Part shown: positions 4,132 through 9,402 of the stretch, piece after piece
Layout: the number at the start of each line of letters is the position of its first letter
How positions within the stretch are numbered: position 1 is the stretch's first letter
Assembly (NCBI RefSeq): GCF_003334355.1
Contig: NZ_QOWP01000056.1
DNA from: Escherichia coli
GTDB lineage: Bacteria > Pseudomonadota > Gammaproteobacteria > Enterobacterales > Enterobacteriaceae
Length of the DNA: 10,236 nt
Direction: 5' to 3' (one strand)
Program-made: the position numbers and the translations under genes
Notes under the pieces: model-generated
Databases searched by the model: none
What the model was told of the DNA's origin: nothing
Seen by the model: the letters and a program-made list of their open reading frames with translations, nothing else

Positions 4132-4207
4132 GCCGATATAGCTCAGTTGGTAGAGCAGCGCATTCGTAATGCGAAGGTCGTAGGTTCGACTCCTATTATC
4201 GGCACCA
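4132..4207 (+). tRNA. thrW: tRNA-Thr (anticodon CGU)
   Basis: 76-nt sequence GCCGATATAGCTCAGTTGGTAGAGCAGCGCATTCGTAATGCGAAGGTCGTAGGTTCGACTCCTATTATCGGCACCA with encoded CCA; anticodon loop carries CGT; matches E. coli thrW. Confidence 0.96.
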
Positions 4208-4372: not shown

Positions 4373-5587
4373 GTGAAACTCAATGCCCGTCAAATAGACA
4401 CAGCCAAGCCAAAAGAGAAGGCTTACAAGCTGGCCGATGGTGGCGGTTTGTATCTCTTGGTAAAACCTAATGGAGGTAAATACTGGCGACTTAAATATCG
4501 TGTAGCTGGTAAAGAGAAGCTATTGGCACTAGGTGTGTATCCTGAGGTTACTCTAGCCGATGCTCGGGCAAAACGTGAAGATGCGAAAAGAGGTATCGCT
4601 GGTGGTATCGATCCGATGGAAGCGAAACGAGAGGAAAAGATTGCCCGGGAAACGCAGTTAAACAACACCTTCAAAGATATTGCCCTTGAGTGGCACAGCA
4701 GCAAATTAAAAAAATGGTCTGCTGGTTATGCTTCAGACATCCTCGAAGCCTTCAACAAAGATGTGTTCCCTTACATTGGCAAAAAACCAATCGCCGAAAT
4801 CAAACCACTTGAACTTCTGAATGTGCTGCGGCGCATTGAGGGGCGCGGTGCTACAGAAAAAGCCAAAAAAGTGAGGCAGCGGTGCGGGGAAGTTTTCCGC
4901 TATGCAATAGTCACTGGTCGCGCAGAGTATAACCCTGCACCAGACCTTACTAGCGCGATGCAAGGCCATGAATCTAATCATTACCCTTTCCTTACAGCCA
5001 AAGAATTACCTGATTTTTTCAAGGCATTGTCCAGTTACTCAGGAAGCGCATTGGTTGTTATGGCGGCTCGTCTACTGATTATCACAGGCTTGCGGACTGG
5101 CGAACTACGTGGCGCATTATGGGATGAAATTGATTTCAACAAGGCTCTCTGGGAGATACCCGCTTCACGTATGAAAATGCGGCGGCCTCATATTGTGCCA
5201 TTGTCTGAGCAGGCTCTTTCGCTTATTGGGAAGATTAGAGAAATAACAGGCAATTACCCTCTTATGTTTCCCGGGCGCAATGATCCAAGGAAAACAATGA
5301 GTGAGGCCAGCATAAACCAAGTGTTTAAGCGCATTGGCTACGCTGGACGTGTAACTGGTCATGGGTTCCGGCACACTATGAGTACGATTTTGCATGAGCA
5401 GGGCTATAACACCGCGTGGATAGAAACGCAGCTCGCTCACGTTGATAAGAACTCAATTCGTGGCACATACAACCATGCGCAATATCTGGATGGAAGGCGG
5501 GAGATGCTTCAATGGTATGCCGACTATATGGATTCTCTCGAGCATGGCGGAAATGTGGTGCATATGGTGTTTGAAAAACACGCATGA
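4373..5587 (+). CDS. Site-specific tyrosine recombinase, P4-type integrase family
   Basis: 404-aa ORF with GTG start, GGAGG 4359-4363. N-terminus KLNARQIDTAKPKEKAYKLADGGGLYLLVKPNGGKYWRLKYR is typical of the P4-family integrase N-terminal arm-binding domain; C-terminal GHGFRHT...RGTYNHAQY carries the H-x-x-R and catalytic Tyr motifs. Sits immediately 3' of a tRNA. Confidence 0.92.
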   Translation: MKLNARQIDTAKPKEKAYKLADGGGLYLLVKPNGGKYWRLKYRVAGKEKLLALGVYPEVTLADARAKREDAKRGIAGGIDPMEAKREEKIARETQLNNTFKDIALEWHSSKLKKWSAGYASDILEAFNKDVFPYIGKKPIAEIKPLELLNVLRRIEGRGATEKAKKVRQRCGEVFRYAIVTGRAEYNPAPDLTSAMQGHESNHYPFLTAKELPDFFKALSSYSGSALVVMAARLLIITGLRTGELRGALWDEIDFNKALWEIPASRMKMRRPHIVPLSEQALSLIGKIREITGNYPLMFPGRNDPRKTMSEASINQVFKRIGYAGRVTGHGFRHTMSTILHEQGYNTAWIETQLAHVDKNSIRGTYNHAQYLDGRREMLQWYADYMDSLEHGGNVVHMVFEKHA

Positions 5588-5840
5588 AACAACTGGACAA
5601 GTATACAGAGGTTTACTAAAGTATAGGGGAGTAGATTGATAAAAACTCACAGAGGATTACTATTTAACAGTTAGCCCTGGAGAAGGGCAATCGCTCTTTT
5701 AACAACGAAGATGGAATCTTCTACGCAGCTGAAAAGCTGGATGCTCTTTAACAGCCTTTGGTGCTTTCCTGATGCAGGAAAGAATAGGGATACATGCACC
5801 TTTACAATGCATGTAATGATTCATCCATGAGGCTGCGGAT

Positions 5841-5863
5841 CGCTGACAAAGCGCAATTGCTCT
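5841..5863 (+). repeat. 23-bp direct repeat copy 1 (CGCTGACAAAGCGCAATTGCTCT) with palindromic GCAATTGC core; candidate operator
   Basis: Identical to 5954-5976. Part of a 26-bp imperfect dyad TGACAAAGCGCAA|TTGCTCTTTAACA. The right arm GCTCTTTAACA recurs at 5743-5753 and, with one extra T, at 5692-5704. Confidence 0.8.
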
Positions 5864-5953
5864 TTAACATTGATGTGGGCGGGATGGTTCGTCCCGCAGT
5901 GACCGATAGATTTCTATCGGGAAACATACAATGATTCAAATATGAATCTACGG

Positions 5954-5976
5954 CGCTGACAAAGCGCAATTGCTCT
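5954..5976 (+). repeat. 23-bp direct repeat copy 2 (CGCTGACAAAGCGCAATTGCTCT)
   Basis: Perfect copy 113 bp downstream of copy 1. Similarity extends upstream imperfectly (ATGAGGCTGCGGAT vs ATGAATCTACGG). Confidence 0.8.
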
Positions 5977-6238
5977 CTTGCCTGCCCACCATGCCCTGAA
6001 AAAGGGCGTTCTTTAAAACTACTGGATGTCACGCCTAATAGCGTGATCCTGCCGAAATGCAGGGTAGCTCTACCCTTGTGGAGCAAACAAACCAAAACAA
6101 TCTGACTATCTTTTATAAAAGACCGCAATATGTTTTTCATATTGTGGTCTTTGGCGTATTCGACATTTGATGCAAATAAAACTCTCGCCATTCGTTGCAG
6201 GAGGGAGTTATTGCGTCATTAGTACAGGATATTAATAA

Positions 6239-6442
6239 ATGGCTAATTACAATTCATTAATTCGTCTCTCTGAAGTTCAAAGGCGAACTGGTTATAGCAA
6301 AGCATGGATTTATCGTCTTATTAGTCAGGGGAGGTTCCCTAAACAGGTAAAAATTGGAAGTCGGGCAATTGCTTTTGTTGAGTCTGAAATAGATGAATGG
6401 ATTGAGAAGTGTATATTAGAATCTAGAGACGAGGTGGCCTGA
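6239..6442 (+). CDS. alpA: AlpA-family phage regulatory protein (Xis/Vis-like winged-helix DNA-binding protein)
   Basis: 67-aa ORF MANYNSLIRLSEVQRRTGYSKAWIYRLISQGRFPKQVKIGSRAIAFVESEIDEWIEK...; helix-turn-helix segment and E-I-D-E-W motif characteristic of AlpA/Vis family; typical position downstream of a P4-type integrase. Confidence 0.85.
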   Translation: MANYNSLIRLSEVQRRTGYSKAWIYRLISQGRFPKQVKIGSRAIAFVESEIDEWIEKCILESRDEVA

Positions 6443-6873
6443 TGGAAAAGAAAAACCGCCCATTACAGGCGGCTAATTCAGATATTCGCGTATCTGATGT
6501 TACGCCCCTGACAAAATCCCTTCAAGCACCAAAGCGCACACCGAAAAAGCATCGTGCCAGAGTCTATATGCTGCGTACTGGTATAGAGGGATGGACAGAA
6601 AATGACATTCTTCGCTACTGCCGTCTGTCTTCTGGTCGTAACTATGCAACAGAGTTAGAACGCCAGCTTGGAATCACTCTGGAGCGTATCGACGAAAAGA
6701 ATCCTGATGGTATCGGAACACACCTTCGCTACCGTTTCTCCTGCCGTGGTGATGTTCTGAAAGTGATCACTCATGTTAACCATCTTGCGAGCATAAATGA
6801 TCACAACGGACTTTCTCAGCAGGAAATTGCCGACATTCTGAAACTCTACCCGGACGCGTTTAACGCCGCCTAA
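6442..6873 (+). CDS. Hypothetical protein (143 aa), basic N-terminal tail; function unknown
   Basis: ATG overlaps the alpA stop (TGATG); GAGGTGG SD at 6431-6437. No family recognised. Confidence 0.7.
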   Translation: MEKKNRPLQAANSDIRVSDVTPLTKSLQAPKRTPKKHRARVYMLRTGIEGWTENDILRYCRLSSGRNYATELERQLGITLERIDEKNPDGIGTHLRYRFSCRGDVLKVITHVNHLASINDHNGLSQQEIADILKLYPDAFNAA

Positions 6874-6885
6874 CGGAGACTGAAA

Positions 6886-7719
6886 ATGAACATCGAAAAA
6901 AGCAGATTAATTTCTGAGGCCGCCCCTCATCTGAACGCCTCTCTGGGCACAATTAACGGTAATGAATTTGCCGCAATTGTCCCGGTTATTCCTGGTCATA
7001 TCGGTGGGCGTGAAACCAATATTGTTAGCGCAAAAGCGTTACACAAAGCGTTGGGCGTGGGAAAAGACTTCTCTACATGGATCACTGATCGCATCTCTGA
7101 ATATGACTTCACCATTGGGCACGATTACTCAGTCCATAAAACAATTTCCCCAAATTTGGGGAAAAGCCCGAATGGCGCGGCTTACAGCAAGATTAAGCAG
7201 TCTGGCAGACCCGGCAAAGACTATCTGTTAAGTGTCGGAATGGCGAAAGAACTGGCAATGATCGAACGCAATGATCAGGGTCGCGCTATCCGCCGTTATT
7301 TCATCCAGTGCGAGGAAGAATTACAGCGTAGCGTGCCTGAAATCGCCGCCCGCTATCGTCGCCAGCTAAAAGCCCGTATCAGTGCCGCAAACAACTTTAA
7401 GCCAATGTGCGATGCGCTGAATATGGCCCGTGCCGAGATGGGTAAAACGACGCAGCAACACCACTACACAAACGAGAGCAATATGATTTCTCGTATCGTT
7501 CTTGGTGGGCTAACTGCTAAGCAGTGGGCGCGGATAAATGGCTATTCTGGCGAACCTCGCGACCATATGAACGCAGAACAGCTTGAGCACCTCTCATATC
7601 TCGAAAGCACCAATATCACGTTAATTGATATGGGCATGGAATATGAGCAGCGCAAAGGAGAACTCACCCGCCTGTCGCAACGCTGGCTCGCCAAGCGTCT
7701 GGAGGTGGTCAATGTCTAA
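6886..7719 (+). CDS. Phage antirepressor-like protein (AntA/KilAC-type N-terminal domain), 277 aa
   Basis: GGAGA SD 6875-6879. Motifs ...AKALHKALGVGKDFSTWITDRISEYDF... and ...DYLLSVGMAKELAMIERNDQGRAIRRYFIQCEE... resemble the AntA-type antirepressor N-terminal domain as I recall it. Confidence 0.8.
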   Translation: MNIEKSRLISEAAPHLNASLGTINGNEFAAIVPVIPGHIGGRETNIVSAKALHKALGVGKDFSTWITDRISEYDFTIGHDYSVHKTISPNLGKSPNGAAYSKIKQSGRPGKDYLLSVGMAKELAMIERNDQGRAIRRYFIQCEEELQRSVPEIAARYRRQLKARISAANNFKPMCDALNMARAEMGKTTQQHHYTNESNMISRIVLGGLTAKQWARINGYSGEPRDHMNAEQLEHLSYLESTNITLIDMGMEYEQRKGELTRLSQRWLAKRLEVVNV

Positions 7720-7894
7720 GCCAACAGGAACACCACAACCACAAAAACGCTACAAAGATGCCCACGGAGCACTCGTTACTGTCGAAAGCGTGTCTCACAA
7801 CCGAGTGACGTTTTATCGCGACGGGTATCAATCGCCATGCGTACAACCGCTGGCGCGTTTCATGAAGGAGTTCGCGGAGGTTAACAAATGCTAA
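7712..7894 (+). CDS. Small phage-type protein (60 aa); tentatively DUF4222-like
   Basis: ATG 7712 with GGAGGTGG 6 nt upstream, overlapping the upstream stop (ATGTCTAA). Translation [60 protein letters not shown]. The track ORF starts further upstream (7625) inside the preceding gene; the internal start is better supported. Confidence 0.65.
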   Translation: MSKPTGTPQPQKRYKDAHGALVTVESVSHNRVTFYRDGYQSPCVQPLARFMKEFAEVNKC

Positions 7895-8955
7895 CCGTCC
7901 AGAAGAAGACATTTTCACTGGCTGGTATGTCGCCAAAATCCAGCAATATGACGGCAAAGTCAGGCATTAATACAGCAGATACAAGCAAAGTTTATCATTT
8001 GCTGGTGGTCGGAACGGATGCCTTAACCATATCAGAAATCTCGGGCGATGATATTAGCATTGAGAAGGTCAGCGGCTGCGCCAGAAAATTTCTGGTCGTA
8101 GATGATGTCTTCCGCTCGTGTAGTGACTCCACAAAAACATTCGTCCACGCGCGTGACGTTAACGAAATGAGCGCGATGTACTGTGCATCTGGTGCTTCCA
8201 ATAGCGAGTTTTCGGAGTCCATAAAAAAGAGCTTGCCGTTATGCGGCAACACGGTTTATGGTTATAAGGCACCTCATAAAACGGGTGCCGGGATTGGCGT
8301 CCTGGTAAATCGAATGGCGACATATGACGCGCCGAGCGTCTTTTTTTATGTCGTAGGTCTGACTCACCCATTTTTTGGGCGTTGGTGTATAATCCAGCGC
8401 CTTTGTCAATCAATGGTGGCTCAGGCAGGGGCTTCTTCGGAAGCGCCGGTATCCATTCGAGCCGGTTACGCCAACCCTGTCTGGGCTACCACCAGCGAAA
8501 TTGGCGTTTCCGGTGGTAGCGTTACATGCTATCGAATGGAGGCTGCCACATGCTGGCTACTACCCCTACCCAAAAACCGCAATTTATCTGGATTATCGCC
8601 GCAGTTCGCCGCGATTGCCCGACAATTACCGCCAAAATTCATCATATTGCTGCCGAGTCTGAACGCGATGCTCGCCGTTCTCTGGTGCGCGATCACGTCT
8701 GCTTTTTTGCTGGTCGTATCCGCATGGAGGTGGCACATGATTAAAACCTACGATGTGCATATGGATCCCCTCGAACGCACAAGCCAGATCATCACACTGA
8801 CAGAAGTGATTAACGACATTCTGGTGAGCAACTCTCCCTCACGAGACGAAAGACTGAAGGCGTTACTCGCGATATTGGATCTCGCCGTTCGTGACGTTCA
8901 TTTCCTGCTGGAAGGTGGCGAAATGCCAGGAAAAACGGGGGCAACCAATGAATAA
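7888..8955 (+). CDS. Unresolved 355-codon open frame: real N-terminal gene start at 7888; frame stays open through the structured RNA region, the Icd-like gene (other frame) and the 8737 small gene
   Basis: ATG 7888 with GGAGG 7 nt upstream and ATGCTAA overlap with the upstream stop supports initiation. No stop in this frame until 8953-8955. Residues ~176-215 ([35 protein letters not shown]) resemble what databases label ash family protein, but this stretch coincides with strong RNA hairpins. The true C-terminus is unknown. Confidence 0.3.
8326..8347 (+). terminator. Intrinsic-terminator-like element inside the 7888 frame
   Basis: GACGC (8326-8330) / GCGTC (8336-8340) 5-bp GC-rich stem, 5-nt loop, followed by seven T (8341-8347). 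A second T6 run is at 8371-8376. Confidence 0.35.
8388..8393 (+). promoter_or_regulatory. Consensus -10 hexamer TATAAT, TG immediately upstream; possible promoter for the structured RNA/icd leader
   Basis: GTGTATAAT at 8385-8393. No convincing -35 at 17 bp spacing, so weak. Confidence 0.25.
8428..8520 (+). ncRNA. Candidate c4/CI-type antisense regulatory RNA (three consecutive hairpins)
   Basis: HP1 8431-8444: GCTTC/GAAGC stem with TTCG tetraloop. HP2 8445-8466: 6-bp stem (2 wobble) with a 10-nt loop carrying TCCATTCGA (8452-8460). HP3 8485-8520: 9-bp stem CTACCACC.../...GGTGGTAG plus 6-bp inner stem, TTGG loop. The HP2 loop is exactly complementary to TCGAATGGA (8532-8540), which overlaps the GGAGG SD of the Icd-like gene, and 8/9 complementary to 8310-8317. 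Confidence 0.4.
8550..8744 (+). CDS. Host cell division inhibitor Icd-like protein (64 aa)
   Basis: ATG 8550 with GGAGG 8538-8542. Translation [64 protein letters not shown]; the F-x-W-x-x-x-A-V-R-R ... E-x-x-A-R-R ... F-A-x-R pattern matches my recollection of Icd-like proteins of P1/P4-type elements. The track start at 8526 lacks an SD. Confidence 0.6.
   Translation: MLATTPTQKPQFIWIIAAVRRDCPTITAKIHHIAAESERDARRSLVRDHVCFFAGRIRMEVAHD
8737..8955 (+). CDS. Small acidic hypothetical protein (72 aa), independently initiated
   Basis: ATG 8737 with GGAGGTGG at 8727-8734; overlaps the icd-like stop as ATGATTAA. Translation [72 protein letters not shown]. Same frame as the 7888 ORF. Confidence 0.55.
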   Translation: MIKTYDVHMDPLERTSQIITLTEVINDILVSNSPSRDERLKALLAILDLAVRDVHFLLEGGEMPGKTGATNE

Positions 8956-9142
8956 CTCAATTAATACCCCTCGCCTTACGTCCGCACTTCAATTAATCGA
9001 GCAAGCAGCGGCTGTCCTGGTTGCTGTCAGTCTTTCGGCTGAAGAAATGGACGCTGCTGATGTCGTGGATGCGATTAAAGCGTGCTCATCTTTGGTTAAC
9101 GATGCCCGTGCCGAGCTGGTAATTCTTGGGGGTGAAAAATGA
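8948..9142 (+). CDS. Small acidic hypothetical protein (64 aa)
   Basis: ATG 8948 overlapping the upstream stop (ATGAATAA); [64 protein letters not shown]. The track start at 8891 lies inside the upstream gene. Confidence 0.6.
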   Translation: MNNSINTPRLTSALQLIEQAAAVLVAVSLSAEEMDAADVVDAIKACSSLVNDARAELVILGGEK

Positions 9143-9402
9143 ATATCAACTTAATTTATCGTCATCCGTGTGAGCTGGAAATTGAATCATTGCTGGGGCG
9201 TGAAGAGCCATATCCAGACACATTCACTCCCGCAGATTGCGCGACTGAACGGCTTACCAGAGCGCGCACAGGTCTGGTTCATGTGATGAATGAGATTGTT
9301 CCCTCGGTGGGAGGGGAACAGGCGACAGTAATCAATAGCTGGCTACAAAAAGTTACCTCCCTGATAGATATCGGTTTAATCGATGTGGAGAGTGCGAAAT
9401 GA
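9139..9402 (+). CDS. Small acidic hypothetical protein (87 aa)
   Basis: ATGA overlap with upstream stop; GGGGGTG upstream; MNINLIYRHPCELEIESLLGREEPYPDTF... Confidence 0.65.
   Translation: MNINLIYRHPCELEIESLLGREEPYPDTFTPADCATERLTRARTGLVHVMNEIVPSVGGEQATVINSWLQKVTSLIDIGLIDVESAK

Follow-up and report, generated by a model that had tools for sequence, protein, structure and literature searches.

The stretch of DNA analysed here (the window; 10,236 nt of Escherichia coli contig NZ_QOWP01000056.1) carries a phage-inducible chromosomal island (PICI) of the E. coli EcCIMP1 type, inserted at tRNA-Thr(CGU), and we examined the spacer that separates its integrase gene (int) from alpA, the gene of the PICI master activator. 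The gene order is integrase, a 651-nt spacer, alpA, antirepressor, DUF4222, ash, C4/isrK RNAs and primase. The island was assigned to the EcCIMP1 type by its tRNA-Thr integrase and the att core TCCTATTATC, followed by alpA, antirepressor, ash, primase and PerC; the island layout of EcCIMP1 was described in an experimental study of strain MP1 (PMC11773190). In addition, one RefSeq protein, WP_000035054.1, is the AlpA of both the window and the studied EcCIMP1. The spacer is framed by the following features.

4132 to 4207, plus strand: tRNA-Thr(CGU), the island attachment site (ARAGORN)
4191 to 4200: att core TCCTATTATC, a core repeat identical to the one published for EcCIMP1 (PMC11773190)
4373 to 5587, plus strand: PICI tyrosine integrase (ORF list, and RefSeq annotation of a 100% identical locus)
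5594 to 5622, plus strand: conserved sigma-70-type promoter, TGGACA, 17 nt, TAAAGT (promoter scans of the window, L022 and L073)
6239 to 6442, plus strand: alpA, PICI master activator, a 67-aa AlpA/excisionase-type regulator

An earlier note on this DNA had pointed to three hairpins in the spacer, and all three are present, at 5879-5897 (hairpin 1), 5903-5920 (hairpin 2) and 6118-6152 (hairpin 3). The spacer (5660-6238) folded far better than its shuffles (z -7.1 on the plus strand and -6.7 on the minus strand) and contains about 15 small stems, so that the three hairpins are a sample of a larger pattern. The spacer of MP1 (EcCIMP1) is a 427-nt short form of the window spacer, which was matched in 664 complete E. 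coli records; the window has the rarer long form with hairpins 1 and 2, found in 29 of the 664. At gathering thresholds, Rfam detected tRNA, C4 and isrK only in the whole window, all outside the spacer, and a permissive Rfam scan of the spacer gave chance enterovirus matches only.

The earlier note had stated that no open reading frame (ORF) explains the hairpins, and this holds in substance. RefSeq lists a hypothetical 129-aa coding sequence (CDS), WP_225389441.1, on the minus strand at 5802-6191, antisense to the array of elements described below. It had no PHROG or NCBIfam match, and its frame is broken in relatives by indels (a 113-nt deletion and other lengths that are not multiples of three). 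The CDS was rejected as a gene on both counts and is probably a spurious call; no further credible ORF was found on either strand of the spacer.

boxA words and boxB-type stems of the spacer

Nut sites (boxA plus boxB) and N antitermination are textbook matter, with boxA as the landing site for NusB/NusE. Read along its plus strand, the spacer repeats one word, GCTCTTTAACA, with small hairpins between the copies. This word is boxA, and five copies were found on that strand (consensus CGCTCTTTA / TGCTCTTTAACA), two of which (5742-5753 and 5858-5869) are identical at 12/12 positions to the rrnB leader boxA in the K-12 record. The lambda, P22, mEp234 and K-12 rrnB elements were compared against fetched database records. 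BLAST of hairpins 1 and 2 and the other small stems against deposited phages returned chance matches only; exact-pattern scans of viral contigs were needed because the motifs are too short and variable for BLAST. The elements of the array are listed below in their order along the spacer, with L numbers as our labels for the contigs and loci compared.

5674 to 5705, plus strand: module 1, a lambda-type boxB variant GCCCUGGAGAAGGGC, 3 nt, then boxA CGCTCTTTTAACAA
5726 to 5753, plus strand: module 2, a CAGCU-GAAA-AGCUG hairpin, then boxA TGCTCTTTAACA (12/12 with rrnB boxA)
5764 to 5782, plus strand: AUG-loop hairpin CUUUCCUG-AUG-CAGGAAAG, 10 nt past boxA
5841 to 5869, plus strand: module 3, a P22-type boxB with a 4-bp stem (CGCUGACAAAGCG), then boxA TGCTCTTTAACA
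5879 to 5897, plus strand: hairpin 1, boxB of an L137-class nut site (GGGAUG-NUU-CGUCCC), 9 nt past boxA
5903 to 5920, plus strand: hairpin 2, accessory second stem of the same nut site, 5 nt past boxB
5923 to 5982, plus strand: module 4, a nutL-homologous segment, then a degenerate boxA (5971-5982)
5993 to 6019, plus strand: module 5, the exact lambda nutR boxB GCCCUGAAAAAGGGC (5993-6007), then a boxA-like GTTCTTTAAAAC
6028 to 6047, plus strand: phi21-like boxB candidate GUCACGC-CUAAUA-GCGUGAU, 8 nt past boxA (boxA to stem end 6008-6047)
6048 to 6063, plus strand: CCUGC-CGAAAU-GCAGG hairpin, matching the boxB class of the L195 lambdoid group
6118 to 6152, plus strand: hairpin 3, a conserved 12-15-bp stem about 100 nt upstream of alpA

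Both parts of a lambdoid nut site, boxA and a phage-type boxB, were found among these elements. Besides the exact lambda nutR boxB of module 5, the boxB of module 1 (5674-5688), which was counted in the enrichment test described below, is one base off that of lambda nutL. In module 4, the 48 nt at 5923-5970 share 92-98% identity with the pL-N stretch (nutL) of 933W, HK97, mEp234 and Stx phages, a stretch that some records of 933W/HK97/Stx-type phages label nutL, and the boxB GCGCUGACAAAGCGC at 5953-5967 is identical to the annotated nutL boxB of P22 and mEp234. The boxA of module 3 doubles as the boxA of hairpin 1. The hairpin of module 2 resembles the rrn leader boxB, and its class is kept in L022, L024, L073, L083, L100, L105 and L109.

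Other stems led to lambdoid prophage groups. The AUG-loop stem at 5764-5782 matches the nutL boxB class CCUACCUG-AUG-CAGGUAGG of one such group; an N-like ORF lies 170-215 nt downstream of this class in L253 and L258, and the L253 ORF matches PHROG 271. The CGAAAU-loop stems of L195 stand 12-13 nt past boxA, the nutR stem (CCCUAC-CGAAAU-GUAGGG) adjoining Cro/CII-like genes and the nutL stem (CCCGC-CGAAAU-GCGGG) adjoining CI/N-like genes, and the N-like ORF of L195 also matches PHROG 271. The layout of the phi21-like candidate is similar to that of nutL and nutR of Kapi1/phi21, in which boxA is followed after 9-10 nt by a CUAACC-hexaloop stem; Kapi1 N and the phi21 N peptide of PDB 1NYB have identical arginine-rich motifs. 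Judged by these motif matches, the stems of the array correspond to about six N specificity classes of lambdoid phages.

The array also holds the stems GAAGAU-GGA-AUCUUC (5707-5721), ACAUGCA...UGCAUGU (5792-5814) and GCUCUAC-CCUU-GUGGAGC (6067-6084), the last with covarying counterparts in L008, L022, L083, L105 and L109; these three may be boxBs of yet other phage classes. In three lambdoid prophage groups the N-like proteins (PHROG 271) have distinct arginine-rich N-termini, MKAREIRKLERARQHK, NSRTRRKARRATQRE and KQRYNAKRAAEHR, and the matching boxB classes are, in this order, GGGAUG-NUU-CGUCCC, the CGAAAU-loop stem and CCUG-AUG-CAGG. The N-like ORF of L195 lies at 9106-9345 and its nut sites near 7611-7655 and 8921-8975; the corresponding region of L253 is 5520-5976.

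Hairpin 1 belongs to the first of these boxB classes. Its GCGGGA/UCCCGC stem extends through U.G and G-C pairs to 8 bp closed by a GUU triloop, and it folds at -13.6 kcal/mol as plus-strand RNA (z -2.6) versus -9.7 on the minus strand. An exact scan of viral contigs with GGGATGTTTCGTCCC gave 56 loci, about 30 of which share one context, and in L137 this context is a lambdoid immunity region. There the nutR stem (site at 7911-7955) stands 10 nt past boxA between Cro-like and CII-like genes, and a sister copy, GGGGAUGAUUCGUCCCC, stands 9 nt past boxA between CI-like and N-like genes as nutL (6578-6622). Four ORFs adjoin these sites, and their PHROG matches are to the N-like, CI-type repressor, Cro-type repressor and CII families. 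In the N-like protein (6201-6479, minus strand), the C-terminal two-thirds share 48% identity with P22 gp24 and 65% with mEpX2 N, and the arginine-rich N-terminus had no counterpart in deposited phages except a weak full-length match (39.5%) in Vibrio phage IKEMa6-1. The class comprises 51 distinct sites (island copies included) and about 25 phage contigs, mostly with one site per strand, and every site has a boxA, 9-11 nt and a GGGAUG-NUU-CGUCCC-type stem. Every one of 23 distinct phage sites keeps the stem fully paired and the U.G wobble unchanged; a single pair is A-U in some sites and G-C in others. Furthermore, a covariance model built from these 23 sites, with the window excluded, matched positions 5854-5898 over its full length (21.8 bits, E 0.0024), which was its best match in the window. 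The shared nutL/nutR motif, the boxA spacing and the covariance match identify hairpin 1 as a nut-site boxB.

Hairpin 2 (7 bp, 4-nt loop, -10.1 kcal/mol, z -3.5) is the positional counterpart of a second stem (at least 5 bp, starting at most 9 nt past boxB) that is present in 40 of 44 distinct phage sites, where its sequence varies and its position is kept. It has no sequence homologue, since the exact scan for the GUU-loop form of hairpin 1 yielded a single phage nut site, with a different second stem. Hairpins 1 and 2 together form the extra nut site of the long spacer form. The earlier note had offered several roles for them. Its suggestion of RNA elements of a leader is supported, as the two stems make up a phage-type nut site 9 nt past boxA within a plus-strand array, and it was right that neither is followed by a classic plus-strand U-run. 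Its suggestion of protein-binding DNA dyads found no support for this pair: the U.G pair would be C.A on the other strand, and the stems sit at RNA nut positions in phages.

We then compared 11 non-redundant cassettes with 500 dinucleotide shuffles; the cassettes are related and the trials are not independent. Plus-strand counts over the 11 cassettes were 32 boxB-type hairpins (shuffles 5.4 +/- 2.4, maximum 15) and 30 boxA words (shuffles 0.7 +/- 0.8); the minus strand had 1 and 0, respectively. The stems vary (GCCCU, GCGCU, GUGCU, ACCCU, ACUCU, CAGCU, UCGCU), and the loop region is kept.

The two rrnB-identical boxA copies also suit a leader of the rrn type that acts without N, in which boxA and rrn-boxB-like stems would recruit NusB/E, NusG and SuhB and shield the transcript from Rho, the phage-like boxBs being incidental. 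Transcription of the island operon would then be possible each time its promoter is active. Upstream of its boxA the rrnB leader forms a CGCUGAGAAAAAGCG stem, which resembles the CGCUGAAAAGCG-type stems of the array, and the order boxB then boxA is shared as well. This explanation leaves unaccounted for the exact lambda and P22 boxBs, the 48-nt flank homology to nutL, and the stems that match four more boxB classes of phages and stand at phage-like distances from boxA. A further prediction is constitutive alpA expression, with no dependence on a helper, and an rrn-type boxC has no recurring equivalent in the array, where only 'GAUGUGGGCGGG' past one boxA resembles it. We regard an N-independent leader as improbable.

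Hairpin 3 and the order of promoter, array and probable terminator

A nut site would lie on the transcribed strand between a promoter and the terminators that it overrides. For the elements described above, a conserved promoter-like box that the scan called stands upstream, and terminator-like stems stand downstream, of which the window's own is weak. The nucleotides between the promoter hexamers are conserved too (CTGGACAWGTANACAG), and the predicted start of the leader RNA lies here. The promoter box stays conserved in cassettes that are otherwise unalignable. The box at 5593-5608 recurs in L008, L022, L024, L073, L083, L100, L101, L105 and L109, and its conservation extends past the -35 and -10 hexamers. 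A scan with the promoter box over one genome per species found 2 loci only, in Enterobacter and Yokenella. In Pseudomonas aeruginosa the AlpA binding element sits between -35 and -10 (PMC9371919), and the promoter box of the island may serve for loading or as an operator, AlpA autoactivation being one example.

Hairpin 3 is, in the window, a 15-bp stem (-20.8 kcal/mol on the plus strand versus -16.3 on the minus strand, z about -5.9). The 'one mismatch' given for it by the earlier note is an A.C mismatch on the minus strand only; on the plus strand the same position is a G.U wobble. A homologous stem (ACCRCA..AUG / CAU..UGUGGU) was found in five lineages, with two compensated pairs and with G.U alternating with A-U. 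Its distance upstream of alpA is about 105-117 nt in the window family, L008 and L022. The plus-strand tails of three relatives are U-rich: L008 has UUUUUGUCG (UUUUUGU; called as a terminator), L022 has UUUUGUUGU and L101 has UUUUUUUUAUUU. The earlier observation that hairpin 3 lacks a classic plus-strand U-run holds only weakly in the window. In L024 and L073, a hairpin-1-type boxB directly precedes a hairpin-3-type stem, CUGAAGU...ACUUCAG, and in L073 this stem runs into U7 and the scan called it a plus-strand terminator. A degenerate scan for hairpin 3 outside the islands gave unrelated coding matches only. Because the stem is conserved and compensated and three relatives have plus-strand U-tracts, hairpin 3 is a probable intrinsic terminator or attenuator on the plus strand, closing the nut array.

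The same data bear on readings that look to the DNA or to the opposite strand, namely protein-binding dyads, a leftward terminator as the earlier note had suggested, the minus-strand CDS, or a hairpin 3 that serves AlpA or some other regulator as an operator at the alpA promoter. A leftward terminator is not supported: the U/A-rich tail on the minus strand is not conserved, the U-tracts of the relatives are on the plus strand, the wobble pairs favour plus-strand RNA, and there is no leftward gene to terminate. The CDS lacks a family match and is frame-broken in relatives, and hairpins 1 and 2 occupy RNA nut positions in phages. In favour of an operator, the stem sequence ACCRCA...UGUGGU is kept at its distance from alpA in the window family, L008 and L022, two ACCGCAATTGCGGT palindromes lie at the same place in L017 and L088, and AlpA activates its own expression (PMC6092414). 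As a group these readings have a slim chance, and a DNA operator or protein-binding dyad at hairpin 3 is a minority possibility. The ACCGCAATTGCGGT palindromes of L017 and L088 are arranged in tandem about 95 nt upstream of alpA and share the half-site ACCGCAA with hairpin 3; a protein operator shared by alpA upstream regions is one possible role for them.

Relatives with 60-67% integrase identity have this cassette as well; its promoter box, boxA words, purine-loop stems and GGGAUG-NNN-CGUCCC stem are always on the plus strand. They also keep the succession of promoter, nut array, terminator and downstream genes. Modules are gained and lost between lineages, and the overall design is unchanged. 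In the window, a perfect 23-nt direct repeat that contains a boxB and the start of boxA (left copy 5841-5863, right copy 5954-5976) brackets the 113-nt segment with hairpins 1 and 2, and this segment is missing from most relatives, either exactly or within larger blocks. From the position of the repeat, module gain and loss looks like recombination at shared boxB/boxA sequence. In a survey of alpA relatives, about 60 of 74 loci had no array, so that the array is not a general feature of alpA.

Such recombination could also have left a non-functional patchwork, with the spacer as debris of exchange between islands and lambdoid prophages at shared boxA/boxB. The modular spacer with its indel variants fits this, as do the perfect repeat around the hairpin 1/2 segment and the scarcity or absence in E. 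coli of some of the matching classes of phage. Debris would not be expected to share strand, order and spacing, to keep its design at 60-67% integrase identity while modules turn over, or to have stems maintained by compensatory changes, and of the rival explanations we trust this one least.

Helper induction and a proposed switch

A published reporter experiment bears directly on the spacer. An EcCIMP1 alpA-lux fusion (-449 to +50) was strongly induced by the induced helper Kapi1; mitomycin C alone gave no induction, and induction persisted without AlpA (PMC11773190). This fragment covers the entire 427-nt EcCIMP1 spacer, and Kapi1, the demonstrated EcCIMP1 helper, encodes an N of the phi21 type. 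The study gives no induction mechanism and nowhere mentions antitermination, nut or boxB (PMC11773190). The phage inducer of E. coli PICI alpA was still unknown and 'under study' in 2018 (PMC6092414). In the literature searched we found no paper that joins PICI, alpA and antiterminator, or this induction and nut sites.

Taken together, the phage-identical boxBs, the strand-specific enrichment, the recurrent promoter-array-terminator order and the helper-dependent induction of alpA suggest that the spacer is a multi-specificity, N-sensing antitermination switch, in which a leader nut array is followed by the hairpin 3 terminator before alpA; we favour this reading, with some reserve. In the proposed mechanism, the promoter just past int (5594-5622) would give an untranslated plus-strand leader of about 520 nt up to hairpin 3, which would keep alpA off without a helper. 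When a lambdoid helper infects or is induced, N, its first gene product, would bind its cognate boxB on the nascent leader and, with Nus factors at boxA, would convert RNA polymerase to a termination-resistant form. The polymerase could then read through hairpin 3, and possibly later terminators, into alpA and the downstream operon, and alpA expression would set off island excision and replication. With many boxB classes, a single island could answer many helpers. It is a matter of speculation that processive antitermination also overrides the downstream C4/CI-type RNA immunity region.

A broader form of this proposal makes the leader a pan-lambdoid 'N-protein reader', assembled from nut sites captured from the phages that the island has met, so that about six N families could switch it in trans, while the RNA might also soak up N and thereby slow the helper. 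The 48-nt nutL tract and the repeat-flanked insert with hairpins 1 and 2 look like captures of this kind. On the broader proposal as a whole our belief and our doubt are evenly balanced.

In a rival explanation, a constitutive leader might act as a decoy or sponge that titrates the N of invading phages, or engages N-modified polymerase unproductively, and so delays the helper. The same multi-class boxB array behind a conserved promoter would serve this purpose; published PICIs hinder the reproduction of their helpers (PMC6092414), and EcCIMP1 has a part in superinfection immunity (PMC11773190). A pure decoy needs no fixed position or orientation upstream of a terminator and alpA, leaves the helper-dependent induction of the alpA reporter unexplained, and would have to be present at high RNA levels to titrate N. 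We consider a decoy unlikely; it is compatible with the sensor model, and both could coexist. In order of our confidence, the rivals are the N decoy, the rrn-type leader, the group of DNA operator, leftward terminator and CDS, and recombination debris.

Several observations weigh against an N-sensing switch. The tail of hairpin 3 in the window is weak (UUUGGCGUAUU) and was not called by the terminator scan, and the homologue of hairpin 3 in L109 has no U-tract. In several modules boxB precedes boxA, which follows 2-4 nt on; this is the rrn order, not the phage order, and a perfect rrn-type boxA could act without N. The loop of the phi21-like stem, CUAAUA, differs from CUAACC at 2/6 positions, and an exact scan for this stem found islands only, plus contig L210 without a nearby boxA. 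Among 5426 complete E. coli genomes, the phage class of hairpin 1 is rare (13/5426) and the CGAAAU class was not found; some modules may be relics or be of use in other hosts. The island can do without hairpins 1 and 2, as only 29 of the 664 spacer-bearing E. coli records have them. Autoactivation by AlpA implies a further control element, which was not located in this analysis. Finally, the int-alpA spacer of EcCICFT073 (L112 7161-7525) has no boxA/boxB array, so that the mechanism is not general for PICIs. EcCICFT073 is a classic PICI, inducible by lambda and phi80. Its spacer holds only a lambda-like CACTCTTAAAAA word and a GGCGUAAAA/UUUUAUGCC stem, and its helper sensing may differ.

How Gram-negative PICIs sense their helpers has been an open question since their description. 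EcCIMP1 induction was shown through exactly this spacer with no mechanism given (PMC11773190), and the array offers a concrete hypothesis. If true, it would supply the missing helper-sensing mechanism for one Gram-negative PICI family, and it would explain how one island can use diverse helpers, given that a Kapi1-like phage was present in only 2/21 EcCIMP1 strains (PMC11773190). It would also be the first case of a mobile element that uses the antiterminator of another element as its induction signal, via a multi-specificity nut array. As by-products, the analysis yielded three boxB/N specificity classes in lambdoid prophages, one of them rarely seen in deposited phage genomes, and a natural collection of orthogonal N-boxB pairs that synthetic biology could use. 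We know of no earlier description of a satellite-borne nut-site array that would, as it appears, be switched in trans by helper N.

Island context and comparison with known systems

Downstream of the spacer, isrK (Rfam, 67 bits) lies at 8269-8346 and the C4 antisense RNA (79.5 bits) at 8409-8496. Both are inside a 355-aa ORF (7888-8955) that RefSeq annotates as 'ash family protein'; its counterpart in strain MP1 is a pseudogene fragment followed by an Icd-like gene, and this long frame is possibly an over-call that spans a P1/P4-type RNA immunity region. In enterotoxigenic E. coli (ETEC) H10407 (L001/L006), the spacer is 100% identical and no tRNA is annotated upstream of the integrase. The left flank there consists of a transposase fragment and prophage tail-fibre and invertase genes, and the flank in the window is proA-tRNA-Thr.

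The nut sites of lambdoid phages (lambda, P22, phi21, H-19B/933W) are the closest likeness to the array. They have the same boxA and boxB, several of them base for base, with the same 8-11 nt spacing, and they likewise lie on the transcribed strand between promoter and terminators. A lambdoid phage has two sites of a single specificity, which act in cis for its own N, whereas in the window a single leader has up to about ten boxB-like stems, which cover about six specificities. Since the satellite encodes no N in the part examined, its array could respond only in trans.

The rrn leader (boxB-boxA-boxC; NusB/E, SuhB) shares the exact boxA TGCTCTTTAACA and a small purine-loop stem just upstream. 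Unlike that leader, the array is repeated, has boxBs identical to those of phages, has no rRNA downstream, and stands before a regulator gene behind a terminator. EcCIMP1 is the same type of island, with the same attachment site and AlpA, and its spacer is the short form of that in the window.

Helper-embedded PICIs (PMC10111431) likewise tie satellite expression to helper transcription; they reside within a late gene of their helper's prophage, under cis control. The window island, in contrast, occupies a tRNA locus apart from any helper, and N-type nut sites would allow it to be switched in trans. Finally, the AlpA/Q-type antiterminators of P. aeruginosa also combine a promoter with an intrinsic terminator that is bypassed by a factor-modified polymerase, with the binding element between -35 and -10 (PMC9371919); the promoter spacer of the window is unusually conserved. 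P. aeruginosa AlpA is DNA-loaded, Q-like and extends past residue 140, whereas the PICI AlpA is a 67-aa excisionase-type protein.

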